DNA of 31,206 nt from Betaproteobacteria bacterium (GCA_009925965.1 RFPW01000001.1:1-31206); one strand, 5' to 3'; positions 11,849-22,526 are shown, counted from the first letter of the stretch. Numbers and translations: made by a program. The notes: a model not told the origin generated them from the sequence alone.

Positions 11849-11968
11849 ACACGGGCCTCGAAAATCCCCATGCGCCGTCAGTTACGGGCGGAACAGGTCG
11901 ACAAACCCACTACAATCCCGAGAAGAAGTTCGCTTAAATCTTCATCTTTAAGTTAAAGGAAGTTAGTG

Positions 11969-13051
11969 ATGGATCGACGTCAAATTATTAAGAACACGGG
12001 TCTCGCGGGGATCCTTGCGACCGGTGTTGCTCCCGGCATTGTCGGCGCCCAGGCACAAGTCCGGTGGCGCATGACTTCAAGTTTCCCAAAGGCGCTCGAC
12101 ACCCTGTTTGGAGTCGCTGATGTGTTCTCCAAAAAGGTCAGCGACATGACCGGCGGAAAATTCGTCATCTCAACCCATGCCCCGGGCGAAATAGTTCCTG
12201 CATTCGGAACAGTCGATGCCGTCCAGCAAGGGACGGTAGAGTGCGCAGGGACGGCTAGTTACTACTACTTCGGCAAAGACCCTGTCTTTGCTCTGGGGTG
12301 CACCATCCCGTTTGGCCTCAACGCGCGTCAAATGACGGCCTGGCTTTACGAGGGCAATGGCCTGACCCTCATGCGCGAGTTTTTCCGGCAATACAACATC
12401 ATGATGTTCCCGATGGGGAATACCGGTTCCCAAATGGGCGGATGGTGGCGTAAAGAAATTAAATCGGTAGCCGATGTCAAGGGCGTCAAGTTTCGTACGG
12501 GTGGGTTCCCAGGAAGGGTTTGGGAGCGACTCGGTGGTATTGCAGCCAATATCCCCGGCGGCGAAATTTATTCGGCCCTTGAAAAAGGAACAGTCGATGC
12601 GGCCGAATGGGTGGGGCCGTACGACGACGAGCGACTTGGTCTACACAAAGTGGCCCCCCTTTACGCCTACCCAGGCTGGTGGGAGCCCGGTCCGAACATC
12701 GATCTGCACGTCAACATCAAAGCGTATGAGGCCTTGTCTCCAGAATATCGGGCGATCATTGAAAACGCTGCCGCCTACGCGCACACGGACATGCTGGCCA
12801 AGTATGACTCCCGTAACCCGGCCGCGCTGAAGCGTCTGGTGGCCGGTGGCACCAAGCTCTACAAATTCCCGAAAGACATGATGGATGCCGCCTTCAAGGA
12901 GGCAATGGGTCTGTACAGCGAACTATCCGATACCAACCCGAACTGGAAAAAGATCTACACGGATCTTTCGAATTTCCGTCGGGACTCAAACCTCTGGTTC
13001 CGTCTGACCGAAGCCGCCAATGACGACTTCATGCAAGCTGCCCGACTGTAA
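11969..13051 (+). CDS. dctP: TRAP transporter substrate-binding protein (DctP, TakP-like subfamily)
   Basis: Twin-arginine-like leader MDRRQIIK..GLAG; WRMTSSFPK.LD, GNTGSQMGGWWRKEI, KFR, ALEKGTVDAAEWVGPYDD, YPGWWEPG. AAAGGA RBS precedes ATG 11969. Substrate cannot be read from the sequence. Confidence 0.92.
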   Translation: MDRRQIIKNTGLAGILATGVAPGIVGAQAQVRWRMTSSFPKALDTLFGVADVFSKKVSDMTGGKFVISTHAPGEIVPAFGTVDAVQQGTVECAGTASYYYFGKDPVFALGCTIPFGLNARQMTAWLYEGNGLTLMREFFRQYNIMMFPMGNTGSQMGGWWRKEIKSVADVKGVKFRTGGFPGRVWERLGGIAANIPGGEIYSALEKGTVDAAEWVGPYDDERLGLHKVAPLYAYPGWWEPGPNIDLHVNIKAYEALSPEYRAIIENAAAYAHTDMLAKYDSRNPAALKRLVAGGTKLYKFPKDMMDAAFKEAMGLYSELSDTNPNWKKIYTDLSNFRRDSNLWFRLTEAANDDFMQAARL

Positions 13052-13120: not shown

Positions 13121-14734
13121 CTACTTTTTGAGCTTATCCTGCTCGATCGAACGACGCAGGGCCTCCATCGCATCGTCAGCAGACGAATCCGCTGGCTTAT
13201 CGCCCGACGCGTTTCCTGATGGGCCCCCAGCCGCATCGCCGGAGGCGCCGGGAGGCGCAAGCGGGTCGCTCAAGACATTCGACGAGTTCGAGCTACCGGT
13301 CTCGTCCGGTTTGTTCTGAATATCCTGCAACTGCTCGATCGCTTTATCAAGGTCGAGCACTTTTTCCTTATCCAGGAAGACCGTCACAGTCTGCGGGAAG
13401 AAAATCACCACCGCCACCAGGATCAACTGGATGATGATGAAAGGGATCGCGCCGAGATAAATGTCCCTCGATTCCACTTTGCGGGGTAACGATCCATTTC
13501 GATGTAGCGTATCCGAAATGCCGCGCAAATAGAACAATGCGAAACCAAACGGCGGGTGCATGAAACTGGTTTGCATGTTCACGCAAATCATCACACCAAA
13601 CCAAACAAGGTCAATCCCGAGCTTGGCTGCGACGGGGGCCAGAAAAGGGATGATGATGAAGGCGATCTCGAAGAAATCGAGAAAGAACGCCAGGAAGAAA
13701 ATAAAAATGTTGACGACGATCAGGAAGCCCAACTGACCACCAGGCAGCCCTGACAAAAGGTGTTCGATCCAGATACCTCCATCAACGCCCTGGAACACAA
13801 GCGAGAAGACCCGCGAACCGATCAGAATGAAGACCACCATGGCGGTAATTCGCATGGTGTTGAGCAAGGCCTGCTTAAACAGGTCGTAACTCAATCGGTT
13901 GTGCATCGCCGCCAGAATAAAGGCGCCAACGGCACCCATCGCTCCTGCCTCAGTCGGCGTTGCGACGGCCGTATTCAGACCCGGCAAACCGCCCATGCTA
14001 CCGAGAACGGTAATGATTAGAACGGCCGAAGGGATAATGCCGCGCAAGCATTTTTTCCAGAGGGCCCAACCGTCGAGCGTACGCGCTTCCTTCGGCAGCC
14101 CAGGGACGTGCGAGGGACTGATCCTGGACAACAGGAAAGTGTAAAGCGCGAACAAGAGAACCTGCAGAATGGATGGCCCCCAGGCTCCCTTGTACATATC
14201 GCCAACCGGCTTCCCAAGTTGGTCAGCCAGCACGATCAGAACCAGCGACGGCGGAACCAGCTGGGTGATCGTCCCCGATGCAGCCAGAACGCCAGTGGCG
14301 TAGCGCATGTTGTAGCCCCATCGCATCATGACGGGCAAAGAAATCATTGCCATTGCAATGACTTGCCCGGCGACGGTACCCGTAATGGCCCCAAGAATGA
14401 ATCCAACGATAATCACGGAATAGCCAAGGCCGCCGCGAATCGGACCAAACAGCTGTCCCATCGAGTCCAACATGTCCTCAGCCAGACCGCAACGCTCAAG
14501 GATGGTCCCCATGAGCGTAAAAAAGGGAATGGCCAGCAACAGCTCATTGGACAGAATGCCGAAAACATTCAATGGCAGCGCGGTCATGAAGGACGCCGGA
14601 AACCACCCCATATGAACCGCGAAAAACCCGCAACTGAGTCCAAGCGCCGTCAATGAGAAGGAGACGGGAAACCCAATCAGCAAGACAACGATGAGCGCCG
14701 CAAACATCAACGGAGCGAAAGTATCCATCGTCAT
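13121..14734 (-). CDS. dctM: TRAP transporter large permease (DctM)
   Basis: LLAIPFF.LMG..LER.GLA, GTITQLVPPS.VLIVL, FFLDFFEIAFIIIP, MQTSFMHPPFGFALFYLRG; about 12 TM segments; hydrophilic low-complexity C-terminal tail; ATGA overlap with dctQ. Confidence 0.93.
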   Translation of the reverse strand: MTMDTFAPLMFAALIVVLLIGFPVSFSLTALGLSCGFFAVHMGWFPASFMTALPLNVFGILSNELLLAIPFFTLMGTILERCGLAEDMLDSMGQLFGPIRGGLGYSVIIVGFILGAITGTVAGQVIAMAMISLPVMMRWGYNMRYATGVLAASGTITQLVPPSLVLIVLADQLGKPVGDMYKGAWGPSILQVLLFALYTFLLSRISPSHVPGLPKEARTLDGWALWKKCLRGIIPSAVLIITVLGSMGGLPGLNTAVATPTEAGAMGAVGAFILAAMHNRLSYDLFKQALLNTMRITAMVVFILIGSRVFSLVFQGVDGGIWIEHLLSGLPGGQLGFLIVVNIFIFFLAFFLDFFEIAFIIIPFLAPVAAKLGIDLVWFGVMICVNMQTSFMHPPFGFALFYLRGISDTLHRNGSLPRKVESRDIYLGAIPFIIIQLILVAVVIFFPQTVTVFLDKEKVLDLDKAIEQLQDIQNKPDETGSSNSSNVLSDPLAPPGASGDAAGGPSGNASGDKPADSSADDAMEALRRSIEQDKLKK

Positions 14735-15270
14735 TGGAGAGGCCTCTCATAATGAAACTCTGACTCATACCGGTTCATCAACCAGGCATACCGCTTGATT
14801 GCTTCAGAGACGCCCTGAGCAAACAACAGGCTAAAACCGAGTGGCAACATCAGCATCGCTGGCCAACGGATCAGACCACCGGCGTTACTGGAGACCTCAC
14901 CGCTTGCGTACATCTTCAAGAACAACGGAAACGCGAAGTAAATCATGACAGCTGTCGACGGCAGCATGAAAAGGAGAAAACCCAGCAAATCAATCCAAGC
15001 CTGAACCCGGCCGGAGTACTGTCCATAAAGCACGTCTACGCGAACGTGTTCATTAACGCGGAGCACCTGTGACGCGCCGAGCATCACGCATGCCGCGAAC
15101 AGGTACCACTGAATCTCCAGGTAGGCGTTTGAGCTGTAGTTGAAGCCATATCGCACCAACGCATTGAGCGCACTGATAAAACAGGACACGCCCATCGCCC
15201 ACTTCGCAATCACCGCAAAACGGTCGGTCACCCGATCAATGAGTTTCGTCAAGCCCAACAACGCGTCCAT
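14731..15270 (-). CDS. dctQ: TRAP transporter small permease (DctQ)
   Basis: Four TM segments; NALVRY.FNYSSNAYLEIQWYLFA, NEHVRVDV.Y, SSNAGGLIRWP; GGAGA RBS. Confidence 0.9.
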   Translation of the reverse strand: MDALLGLTKLIDRVTDRFAVIAKWAMGVSCFISALNALVRYGFNYSSNAYLEIQWYLFAACVMLGASQVLRVNEHVRVDVLYGQYSGRVQAWIDLLGFLLFMLPSTAVMIYFAFPLFLKMYASGEVSSNAGGLIRWPAMLMLPLGFSLLFAQGVSEAIKRYAWLMNRYESEFHYERPLQ

Positions 15271-15368
15271 GTAGTTCTCCCGTCAACAGCGCAACAAGGC
15301 ACCGGAAATCAACGTGGAGAGGCTTGAGCGGCGAGGCCAAAGCCCATGGTGAGCCGATACGTGACGAG

Positions 15369-15383
15369 AATCGCTCAGCGATT
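15369..15383. promoter_or_regulatory. Perfect palindrome, candidate transcription-factor operator upstream of dctQ
   Basis: AATCGCT-C-AGCGATT, flanked by GACG (15363-15366) and CGTC (15385-15388); about 100 bp upstream of the dctQ ATG. Function is inferred only. Confidence 0.35.
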
Positions 15384-15410
15384 ACGTCCGTGGAACGCAA
15401 CACCATCGTG

Positions 15411-15636
15411 AAAGGGCACGGATCTCAGACTGGGGGCCAACCGGTGGACCCAATCAATGATTCCGTGCCCAGATGAAGAGGGTTTTCACCGCTCCGTTCA
15501 TCTGTCCGGGTTGTGGAGTTTACCAAGCCCTGAGAGAAAGTGGCGGTCTCAGGACAAACAGCACAACCAGCGGGTGGTGTTCTACAACAACATCACAACA
15601 ACATCCAAACGACAGCACAACAACACGCGCAGAAAA
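15411..15636 (-). ncRNA. Candidate structured small RNA or leader: G/U-rich tract followed by three hairpins (strand uncertain)
   Basis: No credible ORF. G/U-rich tract on the minus strand (15554-15630). Inverted repeats: CCTGAGA/TCTCAGG (15529-15553), CAGATGAA/TTCATCTG (15470-15504) and GGGCACGGA/TCCGTGCCC (15414-15470), the last followed by TTT on the minus strand. Confidence 0.35.
15584..15627. repeat. 11-bp-period CA-rich direct-repeat array
   Basis: ACAACAACATC (15584), ACAACAACATC (15595), CAAACGACAGC (15606, degenerate), ACAACAACACG (15617); CAGCACAAC also recurs at about 15559 and 15613. Confidence 0.85.
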
Positions 15637-15930
15637 CTACCGCATCAATCTGCTCATCAAGAAACCCACGGCAATTGCAATGCCGACAATCGCCAATGGT
15701 CGCTGGCGAACCCGCTCGCGCGTTTGTGATACCAACCGATCTTGTACTGCCTGCCAGGCCTCACCGCGAGCCACGAATTGATCGGTGGCCTCGTGGACAA
15801 CTGTTGCAAGACGATCGACCGTGCGGTGTGACCGGTGCTGTCTAGGCTGAGCGGAGCCATTGGCATGCTCGGGACGGCCGTCGGCGGACACGAGTAATTT
15901 GGCGGACGCCTGCGGTGTGTTCGTTTCCAT
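15637..15930 (-). CDS. DUF883 / ElaB-YqjD-like small tail-anchored membrane protein
   Basis: 97 aa with a hydrophilic helical body and the C-terminal VRQRPLAIVGIAIAVGFLMSRLMR tail anchor typical of ElaB/YqjD/YgaM. Confidence 0.75.
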   Translation of the reverse strand: METNTPQASAKLLVSADGRPEHANGSAQPRQHRSHRTVDRLATVVHEATDQFVARGEAWQAVQDRLVSQTRERVRQRPLAIVGIAIAVGFLMSRLMR

Positions 15931-15971
15931 GGATAGGATCTCGTAAAAGTGGATTGCTCCAACCCATCGGG

Positions 15972-15988
15972 AGCAAGCGGCGTTCCCC
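15972..15988 (-). promoter_or_regulatory. Candidate sigma54 (-24/-12) promoter for the DUF883 gene
   Basis: Minus strand GGGGAACGCCGCTTGCT: GG (15986-15985)-N10-GC (15974-15973) with TTGC; 42 nt from ATG 15930. Confidence 0.6.
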
Positions 15989-15995
15989 GCGGGGA

Positions 15996-17420
15996 CTATC
16001 GATTCGGCTGATTCAGGCGGCTGTCGCCGGCCAGTTTGGCGAGATGCTCGAGCGAAATCCCCAGCATGGCTGCCGCGCGATCCTCAACCCATGCGCACTG
16101 GACCAGTGTCGCAAGCGCCAACTGACGCTGAGCCGAATCAATCGACGTTCCGATGCGGATAACAACGCCTCGCCGGTCGCTCGGAAAACGACTCCCCGCT
16201 TCAGGCCCTAGCGAACCCCCAACCGCAGGCCCCACGTATAACGAAGTCCGTTCGGTACCTGTCTCGTCGTCGAATGGCAGTTCCTCTGCAGTGAGTAACT
16301 GATCAGCCAGGATGAAGGCCCTTTGAACCGCGTTTCTCAATTGCCGGACGTTGCCCGGCCATGGGGCGATTTTCCAACGAGCGAGAACCCCATCTCCAAA
16401 GCGTTTCTGCGCCCCCTCGCTTCGGTTTAGTTCAAGAAGAAAATGCGTTGCAAGTAGCTCAATATCGTCAATTCGCTCGCGAAGCGGCGGCAACCGAACC
16501 GGAAATGCATTTAACCGGTGGTACAAATCCTCGCGGAGCTTTCCGGCCTGGACAGCCTGCTCGGGAATTCGGTTGGTGGCCGAAATGAGTCGTACATTGG
16601 TCTGAATTGGCTGGACACTGCCGACCCGGGTAAATGCACCAGTTTCGAGAACTCGCAGTAGTTTGACCTGCAACTCGAGCGGCATCTCGGTGACTTCATC
16701 CAAGAAAATGGTACCGCCATCCGCGCGTTCAAAAAAACCTTTGTGCTGACTATCGGCCCCAGTGAAACTGCCCCGCTCATGACCAAAGAGTTCACTCTCG
16801 ATCAGCTGCGCTGAAACCGCTCCGCAGTTGAGCGGGAAGAAGGGTTGCCGCGCGCGTCGGCTCAAACGGTGGATGGTTTGCGCCGCGAGTTCTTTACCAG
16901 TCCCGCTCTCGCCGACCAGTAACACGGTCGCCGAGGTCGGTGCCACCCTTGCCAACTGATCATATAGTGCCGTCATGGCCGGACATCGCCCCAACAAACT
17001 ACCGAACCAACCAGGCTCGGCCGAGAAGTCGGTGCCAATGCCAGCCCCTAGCGGGGGCGCCTCTGGGGAAACACCCAACGAGGCCAGCGCCTGATGCACC
17101 CGCTTCAACTCGAGCGGCAACGGTAAAAAATCGAACACGCCAGCCCGCAAAGCCAATAAGGCGGTTTCTACTGATGGTTTTGCAGCCATCAGGACCGTTG
17201 CAGTCTGTTCCCGGCCCGGCAGATCAGAAATCAATGTCAGCCCCTCCCCATCGGGAAGGCTCTGATTAATAAATGCGATGTTGGGACGGTGTCGGCCAAT
17301 TTCGATACGGCCCTTACGAACGGAATCTGCGAGGCTAAGCGTCATGCCCTCGCCGCGAACGATGTCAGACAGACAACGCTGAATCTCGAGATCTGCGTCA
17401 ACAACCAACGCATGGGCCAT
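15996..17420 (-). CDS. sigma54-dependent enhancer-binding protein (NtrC family) with pseudo-receiver and degenerate Fis-type HTH
   Basis: AAA+ core: GESGTGKE (Walker A), LNCGA, ESELFGHERGSFTGA, IFLDEV (Walker B), QVKLLRVLE, ISATN, REDLYHRL, WPGNVRQLRN. The receiver lacks the phospho-Asp (FINQSLPDG). Start chosen at ATG 17420 (AAGGA RBS, MAHALVVD); ORF-track start is 17489. Confidence 0.92.
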   Translation of the reverse strand: MAHALVVDADLEIQRCLSDIVRGEGMTLSLADSVRKGRIEIGRHRPNIAFINQSLPDGEGLTLISDLPGREQTATVLMAAKPSVETALLALRAGVFDFLPLPLELKRVHQALASLGVSPEAPPLGAGIGTDFSAEPGWFGSLLGRCPAMTALYDQLARVAPTSATVLLVGESGTGKELAAQTIHRLSRRARQPFFPLNCGAVSAQLIESELFGHERGSFTGADSQHKGFFERADGGTIFLDEVTEMPLELQVKLLRVLETGAFTRVGSVQPIQTNVRLISATNRIPEQAVQAGKLREDLYHRLNAFPVRLPPLRERIDDIELLATHFLLELNRSEGAQKRFGDGVLARWKIAPWPGNVRQLRNAVQRAFILADQLLTAEELPFDDETGTERTSLYVGPAVGGSLGPEAGSRFPSDRRGVVIRIGTSIDSAQRQLALATLVQCAWVEDRAAAMLGISLEHLAKLAGDSRLNQPNR

Positions 17421-17548
17421 CGGGATCCTTGTAGTGAATGCGCCGCGGGGTAGCCCGTCGACAAGAGTGTTCAACTGGAAGCTCGACATGATCGGTCAGC
17501 AACCCCCTGTTGGAGGGTGACGGAATTGACATTCGAATCAAGCGTGGC

Positions 17549-17565
17549 CGGGAATGCCAGTTGCT
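17549..17565 (+). promoter_or_regulatory. Candidate sigma54 (-24/-12) promoter for rpoN itself
   Basis: CGGGAATGCCAGTTGCT: GG (17551-17552)-N10-GC (17563-17564) with TTGC; 35 nt upstream of ATG 17600; near-identical to the motif at 15972-15988. Confidence 0.55.
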
Positions 17566-17599
17566 CTAGTCCTCTTCGCGCAACCGACGGAGACCCCAT

Positions 17600-19051
17600 A
17601 TGGGCATGATTGGAATGGACTTACGGGCCCGTCAACAACTGGCCCTGACACCTCGACTACAGCAGTCTGTCAAACTCCTGCAACTCTCCGCAATGGAGTT
17701 CGAGCAGGCGCTCCAACAGGCCATCGGGACCAACCCGTTTCTCGAAGAAGACGATCCCCATAGCGACTCGGCACCCGGGCTTGACGCTGAAGAATCCGAT
17801 CGTTCAGCGACGCCCCTCGATGCGTCAACCGAGGGCCCTGATGACGCTGTCGAAATGATCCCAAGTGCTGGCGAAGGCCTCGAAGAACGCTTTGATTTCG
17901 ATGTTCAATCCGAGCGCGCCGGCAACGGCCAGGATTCTGAAGACAGTGACTGGACCGAATGGGCGGAAACGACGACCTCGCTGCGCGATCATTTGCAGCA
18001 ACAGCTCTTGACCGTCAGGCTAAATTCGCGGGACCTCGAAATGGCAGGCCTAATTATTGAGGCGCTCGACGAAGATGGTTACCTGCGGCAGACCCTTGAG
18101 GAACTCGCTGAGGTCTCCACACTCATTCCTCAAACTGAGCCCGAGGAGTTCCTCACGCCCCTCAAGCTGATCCAGAATATGGATCCAGTGGGGGTCGGTG
18201 CCAGAGATCTTTCCGAGTGTCTGGCAATACAACTTCGTGAGCAACCCCCCAGCCCAGAGCGCGAAATCGCACTCGCAATCGTTCTTCACCACTTGGGCGC
18301 ACTTGCCCGTCGTGAATTCGCCCGCCTCCAACATGCCGTCGGCTGCAATGAGACCGCTTTGCGTTCGGCCCACGCGAAGATTCGTCGCTTGAACCCACGC
18401 CCCGGTGCCGCTTTTTCCAAAGCCGATGCCCGCTATGTGGTGCCCGATGTCATCGTCAGGCGTCATCGTCAGCAATGGGTGGCGACTATTAATCCAGCGG
18501 TTCTCCCGACCATCCGCGTCAACCGGCGCTATGCGGAAATTTTCCGGCGGGCCCGCGACGCCAGTCACGCACAGCTCGGGCAGCAGCTTCAGGAGGCTCG
18601 ATGGCTAGTGCGCAATACCGAGCAACGATTTGCCACGATTCTTCGAGTCGCCGAAACCATCGTCGCTCGCCAAAAGAATTTCTTCGATTACGGCGACGTT
18701 GCCATGAAGCCACTCGGACTGCGTCACATTGCGATCGAGCTCGACCTCCACGAATCAACGATCTCCCGGGCTACCGGCAACAAATACATGTCGACCCCCC
18801 GAGGCATGTTTGAGTTCCGCCATTTCTTCTCGCGTGAACTTGATACCGATACCGGTGGGACCTGCTCCGCCACCGCAATTCGGGCACTTCTGCGCGAAAT
18901 GATTACCGCTGAAGATCACGCAGCGCCATTATCGGACGTCCGTCTGGCTGACCAGCTTGCGTCGCAGGGCATCAAGGTCGCCCGTCGAACTGTCACGAAG
19001 TACCGCCGTCTAATGCAGGTCCCACCCGTTGAGCTAAGGCGCCTGAATTGA
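17600..19051 (+). CDS. rpoN: RNA polymerase sigma54 factor (probable paralogue, RpoN2-like)
   Basis: Region I QQLALTPRLQQSVKLLQLS...NPFLE; LIQNMDPVGVGARDLSECL; MKPL.LRHIA.EL.LHESTISRA.GNKYM.TPRG; RpoN box variant ARRTVTKYR; GGAGA RBS. Confidence 0.96.
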   Translation: MGMIGMDLRARQQLALTPRLQQSVKLLQLSAMEFEQALQQAIGTNPFLEEDDPHSDSAPGLDAEESDRSATPLDASTEGPDDAVEMIPSAGEGLEERFDFDVQSERAGNGQDSEDSDWTEWAETTTSLRDHLQQQLLTVRLNSRDLEMAGLIIEALDEDGYLRQTLEELAEVSTLIPQTEPEEFLTPLKLIQNMDPVGVGARDLSECLAIQLREQPPSPEREIALAIVLHHLGALARREFARLQHAVGCNETALRSAHAKIRRLNPRPGAAFSKADARYVVPDVIVRRHRQQWVATINPAVLPTIRVNRRYAEIFRRARDASHAQLGQQLQEARWLVRNTEQRFATILRVAETIVARQKNFFDYGDVAMKPLGLRHIAIELDLHESTISRATGNKYMSTPRGMFEFRHFFSRELDTDTGGTCSATAIRALLREMITAEDHAAPLSDVRLADQLASQGIKVARRTVTKYRRLMQVPPVELRRLN

Positions 19052-19768
19052 GCGCCGTCGAAACGACTCATAAAGGACGATTCCCGATGCAACCGCCACA
19101 TTGAGACTCTCAATTTGACCAGCCATCGGGATCGATACCACCTCATCACATCGATCGCGTACCAGTCGCCGGAGCCCCGATCCCTCGGCGCCCAACACCC
19201 ATGCGGTTGCGGGCGTCAATTCCACCTCCCACAAATTCACTTCAGACTGATCGGCCGTTCCAATCACACGAATATCCCGCTCCTGAAGTTCGACGACCGT
19301 CCTTGCCAGGTTGGTAACCATGACATAAGGGACGTTCTCTGCGGCACCCGCTGCGGTACGCACAGCCACATCCGTTAGCGAGCAGGCTCTGTCTTTGGGT
19401 GCGATGACGGCATGAGCGCCCGCCCCATCCGCTACTCTCAGGCACGCGCCGAGATTGCGGGGATCGGTAACGCCATCCAACAGCAGAAGCAGGGGTGGAC
19501 CCTGCAATCCATCAAGCAACGCGTCGAGGTCAGTGATCGGTTCGGGCGCACTGGCCATGGCAACTACGCCCTGATGTCGCCCGTCGGGGCACAGGGCGTC
19601 AAGCCTCGCAGCCGGTACCGGGCGAGCGACCACCCCGACAGAGGCGGCCAGCGTAATGAGATCGCGGATTCGCCCGTCGTCTCGACGAGCGTCCACATAG
19701 AGTTCGCTCACGCCGCCCGGATCCCGCCGCAATCGCGAGCCGACCGAATGAAATCCGTAAATCAGCAT
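19034..19768 (-). CDS. rlmB: 23S rRNA (Gm2251) 2'-O-methyltransferase
   Basis: IYGFHSV, HQGVVA, LLLDGVTDPRNLGACLRVA, VLGAEG.GLR, IPMAGQIESLNVAVA (SpoU motifs); downstream of rnr. Confidence 0.95.
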   Translation of the reverse strand: MLIYGFHSVGSRLRRDPGGVSELYVDARRDDGRIRDLITLAASVGVVARPVPAARLDALCPDGRHQGVVAMASAPEPITDLDALLDGLQGPPLLLLLDGVTDPRNLGACLRVADGAGAHAVIAPKDRACSLTDVAVRTAAGAAENVPYVMVTNLARTVVELQERDIRVIGTADQSEVNLWEVELTPATAWVLGAEGSGLRRLVRDRCDEVVSIPMAGQIESLNVAVASGIVLYESFRRRSIQAP

Positions 19769-19804: not shown

Positions 19805-22363
19805 TCACTTTGCCCTGCGCGCGTTTCGCCGCGCCTTGCGCTCACCCGAGGCGGCCACCCGTCGCTCAGCCTGAACCTTCGCAACCGCCGCCGGCTTTCC
19901 CTTGACCCGCTTGACCGCGCTCTTGGCGACGCGCTCTGGCGCAACATCCGGCGGCTTCGCGACGCCCTCACGCGCGGAACGGGGCATCGCGCCCTCAATG
20001 ACTGAGCGGACAGTCTCGCGTTTGGGGACCAATCGAAATTCAATCCGGCGAGCTTCAAGATCAACCCTTGCGACCTGGACCTCGATTGGATCCGTCAGCC
20101 GATAGCGCACGCCCGTTCGCTCACCGCGGAGTTCGTGCGAAGTTTCGCTATATTGGAAATAATCAGTCCCAAGTTCCGAAACGTGAACCAAGCCCTCGAC
20201 ATACATCGAATCGAGGGTTACAAAAACACCAAAGGTTGCAACTCCCGTAATGCGTCCAGAAAACTGCTCGCCGACGTGATTGCGCATGTACTGGCTCTTG
20301 AGCCACGCCTCAACATCTCTCGAAGCGTCATCGGCGCGGCGCTCGTTCGCTGAACAAATTAAGCCAAGCCGTTGCCAGCGATCGGTAACGGCTGGCCGAT
20401 CGGGACGCGCGGAACTTCCGGGCGCGTCCAATGCGACGGCCTCCCGCTTGGCTTTCGTCGCGTTTTCGGCACTTCGGCGTCCGCGCGACAGAGGGAGTAA
20501 GGAATCGCTGTCTTGTGCAATGAAGGGTTCATGGCGCTCCCCGCGAATCAGCGCTTTGATCGCGCGGTGCGTCACCAGATCGGGATAGCGCCGGATCGGG
20601 GATGTGAAATGAGCATAGGCAGCATAGGCCAGGCCAAAGTGCCCAGCGTTATCAGGCGAATAAATCGCCTGCTGCATTGATCGCAACAACATGGTCTGCA
20701 GGAGAGACGCGTCCGGGCGGTCTCGGATCTTCTCGGTCAGGCGCGCGTAATCACCTGGCTCTGGCTCGCCGGATACACCCAGTGACAATCCGAGATTTCG
20801 CAGAAATTCGCGCAGGGTGGCCAGCTTCTCGGGCGTCGGGCCCTCGTGGACCCGATAGAGACAGGGGTGTTTGCCGCGATGAACAAAATCTGCGGCACTC
20901 ACGTTCGCGGCCAGCATGCACTCTTCGATGAGCTTATGGGCGTCGTTGCGGGTACGGGGCACGATCTTTTCGATCCGACCTGCTGAGTCGACCACAATTT
21001 TGGTCTCAACCGTATCGAAATCAATTGCCCCGCGACCAACCCGCGCTTTCGAGAGGACTCGATACAACGCATAGAGATTGTTGAGATGGGGTACCAGTTC
21101 AGCCCGGCGACGGCTGGCCTGAGCATCTCGGCCTGACAGAATATTCCAGACCTCATCGTAGGTAAGTCGCGCGGCGGAGAGCATGACCGCTTCATAGAAC
21201 TGATAGCCGCGGCAGACCCCCTCCTCGTCGATGACCATGTCACAGACCAACACGAGGCGTTCGACCTGCGGATTGATCGAGCAAAGGCCGTTGGAGAGTT
21301 TCTCCGGCAGCATCGGAATAACCCGACGGGGAAAATAAACCGAGGTGGAGCGGGACAACGCCTCACGGTCAAGCGCATCACCAGGTCGCACATAGTGCGA
21401 GACGTCGGCGATTGCCACCAGCAATCGCCAACCGGGCTTGCGCCGAGTCTTCCCTGCGCCGATCTCGCAGGGTTCGCAGTAGACGGCATCATCGAAATCG
21501 CGAGCATCTTCGCCGTCGATTGTCACAAGGGGGACGTCACGCAGATCGACTCGATCACGAAGGTCGGCTGGGCGAACCGAATCTGGAAGGCTCTCAGCTA
21601 GCGCCAACACGTCGGTGGGGAATTGATGCGGCACATCGAACTTGCGCACCGCGATTTCGATTTCCATTCCGGGGTCGTCGATTTCGCCGAGCACTTCGAC
21701 AATCCGCCCGATGGGCTGGGTATATCCCGAGGGCTGCTCAAGAATTTCGACTGTGACCACCTGCCCTGGTTGGGCGGCGGTCGGCTCACCTGGCGGAATC
21801 AGAATGTCGTGCTTGATCCGTTGGTCTTCAGGTACGACAACGGTAATACCGCGCTCGGAAAGCAGGCGGCCAACCAGACGTCGGTTTGCCCGCTCCGTGA
21901 CCTCAACAATGGTGCCCTCGGGCTTGCCACGCCGATCGAACCCAGTGCGTTTGACCAACACTCGATCGCCGTGCATCGCTTTCTGCATCTCGCGAGGGGT
22001 CAAAAAGATATCAGGACCACCGTCGTCGGGAATCAAGAAGCCAAAGCCATCCCGATGTCCCGAAACCCTGCCAGGTACAAAGTCCAGCTTGCTGGCAAGC
22101 AAAAGGACGCCTTTGCGATTCGGCAACAGTTGCCCGTCACGTTCCATCGCAGCTAACCGTTTGCCGAGGACGTCGAGCGCAACCTCGGAGACGGAAAGCC
22201 GCTCACCCAGCTCTTGTGCGGTCAAAGGGGTATCCGCTTCGCGCAGGCAGGCAAGAATCGCTTCGCGGGTCGGGACCGAGGATGGCATCACTGCCGACGG
22301 TGGCGATGCGCGGCGACTGGAGATGGGGCGGTTTGACAAAGGCGTTCCAGACCGTAAACTCAT
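19805..22363 (-). CDS. rnr: Ribonuclease R
   Basis: GHRDGFGFL cold-shock domain, TIDGEDARDFDDAV catalytic motif, HFTSPIRRYPDL, C-terminal S1 domain and basic tail. True start uncertain (TTG 22339 or ATG 22288 are plausible). Confidence 0.96.
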   Translation of the reverse strand: MSLRSGTPLSNRPISSRRASPPSAVMPSSVPTREAILACLREADTPLTAQELGERLSVSEVALDVLGKRLAAMERDGQLLPNRKGVLLLASKLDFVPGRVSGHRDGFGFLIPDDGGPDIFLTPREMQKAMHGDRVLVKRTGFDRRGKPEGTIVEVTERANRRLVGRLLSERGITVVVPEDQRIKHDILIPPGEPTAAQPGQVVTVEILEQPSGYTQPIGRIVEVLGEIDDPGMEIEIAVRKFDVPHQFPTDVLALAESLPDSVRPADLRDRVDLRDVPLVTIDGEDARDFDDAVYCEPCEIGAGKTRRKPGWRLLVAIADVSHYVRPGDALDREALSRSTSVYFPRRVIPMLPEKLSNGLCSINPQVERLVLVCDMVIDEEGVCRGYQFYEAVMLSAARLTYDEVWNILSGRDAQASRRRAELVPHLNNLYALYRVLSKARVGRGAIDFDTVETKIVVDSAGRIEKIVPRTRNDAHKLIEECMLAANVSAADFVHRGKHPCLYRVHEGPTPEKLATLREFLRNLGLSLGVSGEPEPGDYARLTEKIRDRPDASLLQTMLLRSMQQAIYSPDNAGHFGLAYAAYAHFTSPIRRYPDLVTHRAIKALIRGERHEPFIAQDSDSLLPLSRGRRSAENATKAKREAVALDAPGSSARPDRPAVTDRWQRLGLICSANERRADDASRDVEAWLKSQYMRNHVGEQFSGRITGVATFGVFVTLDSMYVEGLVHVSELGTDYFQYSETSHELRGERTGVRYRLTDPIEVQVARVDLEARRIEFRLVPKRETVRSVIEGAMPRSAREGVAKPPDVAPERVAKSAVKRVKGKPAAVAKVQAERRVAASGERKARRNARRAK

Positions 22364-22440: not shown

Positions 22441-22526
<86 letters not shown>

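Follow-up and report, generated by a model that had tools for sequence, protein, structure and literature searches.

A Reduced RpoN2 Module in a Betaproteobacterial Genome: A Second Sigma-54 Paralogue, an Atypical Activator and Candidate Stress-Type Targets

Introduction

Why does a betaproteobacterial genome of only 2.55 Mb carry a second gene for sigma-54, and which promoters would the second sigma factor read? The question is raised by a 31,206-nt stretch of DNA from Betaproteobacteria bacterium (GCA_009925965.1, RFPW01000001.1:1-31206), referred to here in its full length as the window. Three of its genes, encoding a small DUF883-like protein, an enhancer-binding protein (EBP) and a sigma-54 paralogue (rpoN2), form a module flanked by a TRAP transporter and rlmB-rnr. 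A preliminary description, made from the sequence alone, had placed this rpoN between rlmB and the TRAP operon, away from the lptB-rpoN-hpf locus, and head-to-head with the EBP gene, and both statements are borne out by the gene map (Table 1). The DUF883 gene that it called downstream does lie downstream of the EBP gene, on the other strand from rpoN2, and not downstream of rpoN2 itself. The locus was analyzed in the genome of the window (G000; 459 contigs), in three other genomes (G001-G003) of its freshwater lake genus, and in a scan of species-representative genomes that yielded 80 rpoN2-type loci from Caballeronia, Paraburkholderia, Ralstonia, Trinickia, Mycetohabitans, Achromobacter, Verticiella, Pigmentiphaga, Steroidobacteraceae and others. 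The window module is a reduced, rewired variant of the known RpoN2/GSFTGA-EBP module of Ralstonia and Burkholderia, and the evidence for this placement is presented first, followed by what the module may do.

A Second Sigma-54 of the RpoN2 Type

The rpoN2 product belongs to the sigma-54 family, with its activator-interacting, core-binding and DNA-binding domains all matched (PF00309, 54.9 bits; PF04963, 194 bits; PF04552, 198.7 bits), a HESTISR motif, and an RpoN box that reads ARRTVTKYR, as first described. Its best NCBIfam model is NF009118/PRK12469, on which it scores 623.6 bits against a cut-off of 396. A search of the genome for another rpoN showed that the window copy is not the sole one: a canonical gene lies on contig C404 within kdsD-kdsC-lptC-lptA-lptB-rpoN-hpf, has the box ARRTVAKYR, scores 468 on NF009118, and is best fitted by NF004598. 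The two proteins of this genome are 38% identical. Contamination as the source of the second rpoN is ruled out, since both copies are found in all four genomes of the genus. The housekeeping RpoN1 (C404:9257-11041) is itself unusually long at 594 aa, with an insertion of ~100 aa by which the Pfam match to the core-binding domain is broken in two; G001 and G002 also have frames of ~593-604 aa, and the G003 copy is split across contigs.

An RpoN phylogeny, proposed in the preliminary description, separates the two types of gene. In a maximum-likelihood tree the lptB-linked copies form one clade (100/100), and the window copy falls into the sister clade (100/100) together with the R. solanacearum megaplasmid rpoN2, a Caballeronia copy, and copies from metagenome-assembled genomes of Burkholderiales. 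The gene is also well maintained, with a ratio of nonsynonymous to synonymous substitution (dN/dS) of 0.04 against G001. In its subfamily score, its clade, its position outside lptB-rpoN-hpf, and the possession of its own sigma-54-type promoter motif and a GSFTGA EBP, the window gene agrees with the Burkholderiales RpoN2 typified by RSp1671.

The two types of sigma-54 differ at a few positions that are of interest for promoter recognition. Directly after the RpoN box, all 12 canonical copies have Glu, which is found in none of 78 RpoN2 copies; these have His, Asn, Arg, Gly or Gln instead, with Arg in the window copy. The helix-turn-helix (HTH) motif reads SRATGNK in RpoN2 and SRVTTQK in canonical copies. 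Both differences likely fall at DNA-contacting positions. The change within the RpoN box to which the preliminary description had drawn attention fares less well as a mark of the clade. Ala is replaced by Thr or Ser in 18 of the 78 RpoN2 copies and in no canonical copy, and many RpoN2 proteins keep it. The replacement showed no clear relation to the promoter bases at -23 and -26 (C at -23 in 29/40 sites from loci with Thr or Ser and in 109/178 from loci with Ala), and it was rejected as a specificity determinant since it does not track promoter type.

The Adjacent Activator

The EBP is a recognizable sigma-54 activator in its center and an unusual one at both ends. Its conserved start is M24 at 17420, where an equivalent Met begins the relatives; the start was placed there because a stop breaks the upstream extension in G002 and G003. 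The AAA+ domain (PF00158, 225.9 bits) carries GESGTGKE, GSFTGA and FLDEV, and Walker A and B, the GSFTGA loop and the region of the Arg finger are all preserved. The N-terminal region matches Response_reg weakly (40.8 bits) and is not a regular receiver: Asn replaces the phospho-acceptor Asp (FINQSLPDG vs. LIDLVLPDG), Ala replaces Thr, and Leu replaces Lys. At the C-terminus, the HTH_8 profile (PF02954) finds no match in this protein, although it recognizes the NtrC encoded by the same genome; where 60 or more relatives have LGISLKTLYNRL, the recognition helix has LGISLEHLAKLA. Since D54, K104 and the Fis-type residues are missing, the early claim that the protein lacks normal input and DNA-binding residues was accurate. 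The protein also falls below every NCBIfam equivalog cut-off.

In the alignment, these changes (Asp to Asn, Lys to Leu, and the altered helix) are confined to the genus of the window. In other genera, the receiver keeps its acidic pocket, Asp and Lys, and the C-terminus with LGISLKTLYNRL matches HTH_8. The atypical domains are under strong purifying selection and are not decaying, with dN/dS against congeners of 0.02-0.05 for the pseudo-receiver and 0.03-0.19 for the HTH-like end; the AAA+ domain gives 0.04 against G003, the synonymous rate being saturated against G001. Only two true EBPs are present in the G000 assembly, namely NtrC (of NtrBC) and the window EBP.

If the protein no longer binds an enhancer, its target promoters need not share one. 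No 7-mer is common to the upstream regions of all four candidate target promoters in G000 (see below), and no 8-mer is common to three of them, which fits an activator that is independent of an enhancer. A paired GTAA-N3-TTAC enhancer is likewise absent from these four promoters and from 110 island promoters of the 80 loci, and k-mer enrichment around the island promoters, against an unmatched background, returned AT-rich words only (e.g., TGTAAA).

Promoters and Candidate Targets

The preliminary description had noted the same variant -24/-12 motif at rpoN and at the DUF883 gene, and this holds well: there are two such sites only, and they are conserved in the three congeners. The pattern GGRAAYGNCNNTTGCT matches the window exactly twice, at 17550-17565 (+) and 15987-15972 (-), where 0.02 matches are expected by chance and none of 100 shuffles gave two. 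The rpoN2 site lies 34 nt before the ATG, with the spacing GG-N10-GC, and the other site lies 41 nt before the DUF883-like gene. GG-N10-GC is kept at both sites in all four genomes, including the diverged G001, despite diverged flanks, and the rpoN2 promoter is also kept in a metagenomic relative that is 72% identical. Upstream of the rpoN2 promoter, the block at 17509-17534 is nearly invariant in the four genomes, with an adjacent 32-nt insertion in G001, and a similar block is present at locus L039; the EBP may have its own promoter there, or a regulator may bind.

Further sites were sought across the genome with a home-made gene caller, and a site was retained if it passed a position filter and a conservation check. 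This added two conserved sites of the same type, one before a DUF378 gene (C153) and one before a gene for a 184-aa protein of no assigned family that is followed by a PRC-barrel gene (C80). Both motifs are conserved in G000-G003. None of the four promoters, those of rpoN2, the DUF883-like gene, DUF378 and the PRC-barrel-linked gene, has T at -26. Sites without this T also precede HtrA-like, HlyD and ZapD genes and were dismissed as noise. In exact-pattern scans of the genome, neither canonical nor variant motifs were enriched overall.

Sites of the TGGCA(C/T) type are found upstream of other genes. Near-identical sigma-54-type motifs, TGGCATATC-N-TTTGCT, stand at the 5' ends of two paralogous, circularly permuted ATP-grasp genes (C13:1446-1461 and C87:1311-1326, both on the minus strand; loci L049 and L050), which are candidate targets of RpoN1/NtrC. 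In an intergenic region of contig C175 (1505-1565, minus strand), four tandem 15-nt units resembling TGGGACGATGGTGGC scored as sigma-54-like and are probably a tandem repeat rather than a set of promoters.

The DUF883-like protein, the nearest candidate target, was only weakly assignable to the family under which it had been described. Language-model (atlas) neighbors fall in DUF883 clusters, with DUF883 named at 0.92, and one source labels a 91%-identical protein ElaB/YqjD/DUF883. Alignment with E. coli ElaB by hhalign gave a probability of 27% and E = 6.6e-4, and a word-based homologue search returned close relatives only. The protein shares 41% identity over 63 aa with the 92-aa Ralstonia protein encoded downstream of the orthologous EBP gene, and its dN/dS is 0.12.

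Conservation and Related Loci

Conservation of the neighborhood, which the preliminary description had put forward as a check, is found at two levels. Within the genus, the block DctQM-DUF883-EBP<>rpoN2-rlmB-rnr is kept with protein identities of 76-97%, and the open reading frames are intact in four genomes. Beyond it, the linkage of rpoN2, a GSFTGA EBP and a DUF883-like gene extends to Ralstonia and Caballeronia. Neither lptB nor hpf lies near rpoN2 in any of the 80 loci; among 64 EBPs within 9 kb of rpoN2, 62 have GSFTGA rather than GAFTGA, and a DUF883-like gene is present in 13 loci. The Paraburkholderia and Caballeronia homologues are 53-56% identical and lie among stress genes.

The sigma-54-type motif recurs upstream of several orthologous gene families in these loci. 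It precedes rpoN2 itself in 61 of 78 loci, a BON-domain gene in 24, OtsA in 21, DJ-1/PfpI in 19, a gene for an uncharacterized 115-aa protein in 14, a PRC-barrel gene in 14, Topoisomerase IB in seven, PEBP in six and DUF2383 in five. BON, OtsA, DJ-1/PfpI, PRC-barrel and similar families are the counterparts of general-stress genes that depend on RpoS, SigB or EcfG in other bacteria. Two promoter classes can be distinguished. In the rpoN2 promoters of the related loci, T occupies -26 at 60 of 67 sites, whereas the stress-gene promoters have another base there at 102 of 105 sites in seven gene families. This contrast suggests a promoter code that is specific to the paralogue, and the proposal of a stress regulon with its own promoter dialect gains comparative support from the motifs before BON, OtsA, DJ-1/PfpI and PRC-barrel genes that lack T at -26.

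The related loci also vary in ways that deserve mention in their own right. In many rpoN2 islands (L064-L140; e.g., L065:14667-16070 and 17926-19125), two genes for GSFTGA EBPs are arranged divergently. One of the proteins is full-length and includes a receiver, and the other is short (~360-390 aa) and lacks it, like RSp1667/RSp1668; the genus of the window keeps one. In five genomes of the same GTDB family (G016, G008, G009, G011 and G021; loci L020, L021, L024, L025 and L028), a further second rpoN lies tail-to-tail with a GSFTGA EBP that is 45-49% identical to that of the window. Four of these five rpoN copies form a distinct clade, and in these genes the RpoN box is followed by D instead of E, with a promoter of the TGG type upstream. 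These loci suggest that more than one lineage of rpoN2/EBP pairs exists.

Proposed Mechanism

It is with moderate confidence that we read the locus as a reduced Burkholderiales RpoN2 module, made up of a second sigma-54, a dedicated GSFTGA AAA+ activator and a few stress-type targets. RpoN2 holoenzyme would form closed complexes on -24/-12 promoters without T at -26 (VGG-N10-GC), which in this genome would be those of rpoN2, the DUF883-like gene, the DUF378 gene and the 184-aa/PRC-barrel pair, and the adjacent EBP would open these complexes through ATP hydrolysis. Because the canonical Asp and the Fis-type recognition residues are lost in this genus, the EBP, not phosphorylatable at the canonical position, probably acts from solution or through a non-canonical input. 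Since rpoN2 carries the same promoter type as the predicted targets, the rpoN2-EBP pair may form a positive feedback loop. The change of promoter class at rpoN2 here, considered with the dependence of Ralstonia rpoN2 on rpoN1 (see below), leads us to infer that a cascade from RpoN1 to rpoN2 was rewired into a self-activating loop. Positive autoregulation, part of the earlier proposal, is thus plausible for this genus only, where the rpoN2 promoter lacks T at -26; elsewhere it is of the TGG type, and in Ralstonia rpoN2 depends on rpoN1.

What the module may contribute to the cell is suggested by a second absence. RpoS was not found in G000-G003 or in the family relatives G016 and G019, where only RpoD-like and RpoH-like matches were obtained, and because of this the module may supply part of a stationary-phase or general-stress programme. 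The most far-reaching version of this idea holds that RpoN2, which lacks the Glu next to the RpoN box and has an altered HTH, reads a code of its own, with stress promoters marked by a base other than T at -26, and that TGG promoters, in most taxa that of rpoN2 included, are read by RpoN1. RpoN2 and its GSFTGA EBP would then serve as a previously undescribed general-stress switch which, in this genus, is self-activating and driven by an activator independent of phosphorylation and enhancer. On the comparative evidence, this remains tentative, and we consider it possible but on balance doubtful.

Several observations weigh against these proposals. The -26 contrast consists of motif predictions in related, non-independent genomes, and ~116 similar intergenic matches have no properly placed gene, so that singleton sites are noisy. 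Caballeronia and Ralstonia RpoN2 keep Ala in the RpoN box and yet carry VGG promoters. Candidate target promoters in this genome number four only, and the nearest of the targets gives a DUF883 match (PF19029, 24.5 bits) under the cut-off of 27, with no match to the N-terminal domain. The tally of two EBPs comes from a 459-contig assembly, and congeners hold three to four. Metatranscriptome coverage is low, non-directional and without start sites. In the literature, the role of rpoN2 has been termed enigmatic, and Ralstonia rpoN2 is without a known phenotype (PMC4371752, PMC4676750). Finally, genetic data from R. solanacearum indicate that the expression of rpoN2 requires rpoN1 (Ray et al., 2015; PMC4371752).

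Alternative Readings

This last observation is the starting point of the main rival, in which RpoN1 also uses promoters of the rpoN2/DUF883 type. RpoN1, with NtrC or the window EBP, would read both sites from a shared promoter pool or as the head of a sigma cascade, and RpoN2 would be an amplifier, a competitor or redundant, with neither a code of its own nor autoregulation. Consistent with such an arrangement, RSp1671 is among the possible NtrC targets, with an antagonistic role suggested (Lundgren et al.; PMC4676750), and an E. coli rpoN mutant is complemented by rpoN2 from Ralstonia as well as from B. pseudomallei (PMC4676750, PMC4745423), which implies that RpoN2 can read canonical promoters. 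GG and GC are moreover the only near-invariant sigma-54 positions, and the window sites keep them. The two promoter classes argue the other way: the rpoN2 promoter of this genus is of the stress-gene type, unlike the TGG type that prevails elsewhere, and T at -26 is avoided in seven of seven stress-gene families. The changes that RpoN2 shows throughout its clade, next to the RpoN box and within the HTH, also fit poorly with a shared pool. Taken together, these points leave the shared or cascaded use of the promoters rather unlikely, if still the alternative to be taken most seriously.

A second alternative concerns the intergenic tract that follows the DUF883-like gene, which the preliminary description had offered as a structured non-coding element and candidate sRNA. 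The first half of that claim stands. The tract at 15411-15636 (minus strand) folds better than its shuffles (z = -4.4) into three hairpins, its 5' part is rich in G and U, and some of the stem changes in G002 are G-U wobbles that fit the minus strand only, all of which would suit an independent sRNA of the module, similar to GcvB or CrcZ. However, no sRNA match was obtained in the window with Rfam 15 (including GcvB and CrcZ) at the gathering score, a search of 15200-16050 at E <= 5 gave nothing relevant, and neither a promoter nor a strong terminator brackets the tract. Comparison with G001 divides it. A different, unrelated strong hairpin follows DUF883 there, and the homologous hairpin region is found 4.3 kb away, directly upstream of dctQ, with the 3' two-thirds of the tract, from ~15540 downward, accompanying dctQ. 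Contigs from two lake metatranscriptome assemblies are continuous from the dctQ coding sequence to 15495, with none over 15496-15688. The sRNA was rejected as the best reading on the Rfam results and the split of the tract, and we regard it as improbable; the tract looks like the 3' region of DUF883 joined to a leader and promoter of dctQM. Upstream of dctQ, within 15496-15545 (minus strand), a block of ~22 nt (CAGGGCTTGGTAAACTCCAC...) is almost identical in G001 (L016:1740-2200, minus strand) amid a diverged intergenic region, and may serve the TRAP dctQM operon as a promoter or regulator site.

That the module is instead decaying in a streamlined genome, with a non-functional EBP and with rpoN2 and DUF883 as relics, is very improbable, for although the EBP has lost key residues, the genome is small with few EBPs, and the Ralstonia gene has no known phenotype (PMC4371752), all reading frames are intact in four genomes, RpoN2 and the AAA+ and pseudo-receiver domains of the EBP have a dN/dS of 0.05 or less, the ATPase motifs are whole, the promoter motifs are kept amid diverged flanks, and, as weak further evidence, lake metatranscriptome assemblies contain fragments nearly identical to each of the three genes.

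Locus Layout

The features of the module and its surroundings are listed in Table 1. Past the 5' end of rnr, on the opposite strand, lies a tRNA gene (22441-22523, +), which is also the only Rfam match at the gathering score in the whole window.

Table 1. Coordinates of the module and neighboring features, numbered from the first nucleotide of the window.
Feature	Position	Strand	Remarks
dctP	11966-13051	+	TRAP transporter gene
dctM/dctQ	13121-15270	-	TRAP transporter genes
Tract	15271-15636	-	Intergenic; looks like DUF883 3' region (G/U-rich, 15560-15636) plus dctQM upstream leader
DUF883-like gene	15637-15930	-	97 aa, small tail-anchored membrane protein
Predicted -24/-12 sigma-54-type promoter of the DUF883-like gene	15972-15987	-	GGGAACG-N4-TTGCT; begins 8 nt past the EBP stop codon
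EBP gene	15996-17420	-	474 aa from the conserved start; longest open reading frame 15996-17489
Conserved block in the divergent intergenic region	17509-17534		Upstream of the rpoN2 promoter
Predicted -24/-12 sigma-54-type promoter of rpoN2	17550-17565	+	GGGAATG-N4-TTGCT; no T at -26
rpoN2	17600-19051	+	Second sigma-54 paralogue, 483 aa
rlmB	19034-19768	-	Convergent with rpoN2
rnr	19805-22363	-	Next after rlmB

Significance

The RpoN2 system of this genome takes a minimal natural form: one sigma, one activator and a few candidate targets, with NtrC as the sole additional EBP of the assembly and RpoS not detected. Considered alongside the 80 related loci, it predicts a set of targets (BON/OsmY-like, OtsA, DJ-1/PfpI, PRC-barrel, DUF883 and DUF378), a discriminating promoter position at -26, and candidate specificity residues, namely the position next to the RpoN box that is Glu in canonical copies and those of the HTH. 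If these predictions are true, they would show how a single cell keeps two sigma-54 paralogues from interfering with each other, and that a general-stress programme is among the tasks sigma-54 can take on. The relatives that carry the RpoN2 module include plant and human pathogens, and the window locus may hint at the role of the poorly understood module in Ralstonia and Burkholderia, where mutants of the second sigma-54 have given no clear phenotype.

Comparison with Known Systems

The closest known system is the megaplasmid rpoN2 of Ralstonia. The preliminary description did not recognize the combination of genes as a characterized one, a view that cannot be upheld since Table 3 of Lundgren et al. 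(2015; PMC4676750) already lists the rpoN2 gene RSp1671, for which an RpoN promoter is predicted, together with its neighbors RSp1667 and RSp1668 as GSFTGA EBPs. The likeness lies in a shared clade, a position outside the lptB locus beside a canonical copy, a sigma-54-type promoter and an adjacent GSFTGA EBP. The Ralstonia EBP that adjoins rpoN2 is 52% identical to that of the window and is followed by DUF1328 and then by the gene for the 92-aa DUF883-like protein, with CGGTACG-N4-TTGCT just past the EBP stop and before DUF1328-DUF883, in position and type as in the window. The two systems differ in several respects: Ralstonia has two EBPs, with receiver and HTH_8 preserved, an rpoN2 promoter of the TGG type, a dependence on rpoN1 that has been tested, an intervening DUF1328, and RpoS. 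In the window, the single EBP has a pseudo-receiver and its HTH is degenerate, the rpoN2 promoter is without T at -26 and the layout is head-to-head, and no RpoS was found.

Other sigma-54 paralogues offer more distant parallels. The RpoN2 of B. pseudomallei, encoded on chromosome 2, is a second sigma-54 too; it lacks a nitrogen phenotype and is tied to stationary phase or stress through the catalase gene katE, whose expression requires it (PMC4745423). No such catalase target was seen in the genome of the window. In Rhodobacter (Cereibacter) sphaeroides, RpoN1-4 form paralogue-specific pairs of sigma-54 and EBP with promoter position -11 as the discriminator (Poggio et al., as cited in PMC4676750). 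They resemble the system proposed here in having non-interchangeable sigma-54 paralogues with their own activators and a discriminating promoter position; they belong to another lineage with nif and flagellar regulons, and -11 was shown experimentally, whereas -26 is proposed for the window.

Two comparisons concern single components. E. coli ElaB, YqjD and YgaM are small tail-anchored membrane proteins of ~100 aa, which the DUF883-like protein seems to resemble in its C-terminal anchor and in being regulated in a stress-type setting, but they are under RpoS, whereas the window gene stands behind a predicted sigma-54-type promoter and its sequence link to them is weak. The EBP, in turn, recalls H. 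pylori FlgR, Chlamydia CtcC and R. sphaeroides FleT, AAA+ sigma-54 activators that lack a functional enhancer-binding HTH and act without binding DNA or with atypical receivers. These proteins lack that domain altogether, and FlgR and CtcC keep a phosphorylatable receiver, whereas the window EBP retains both of its terminal domains in an altered and strongly conserved form.

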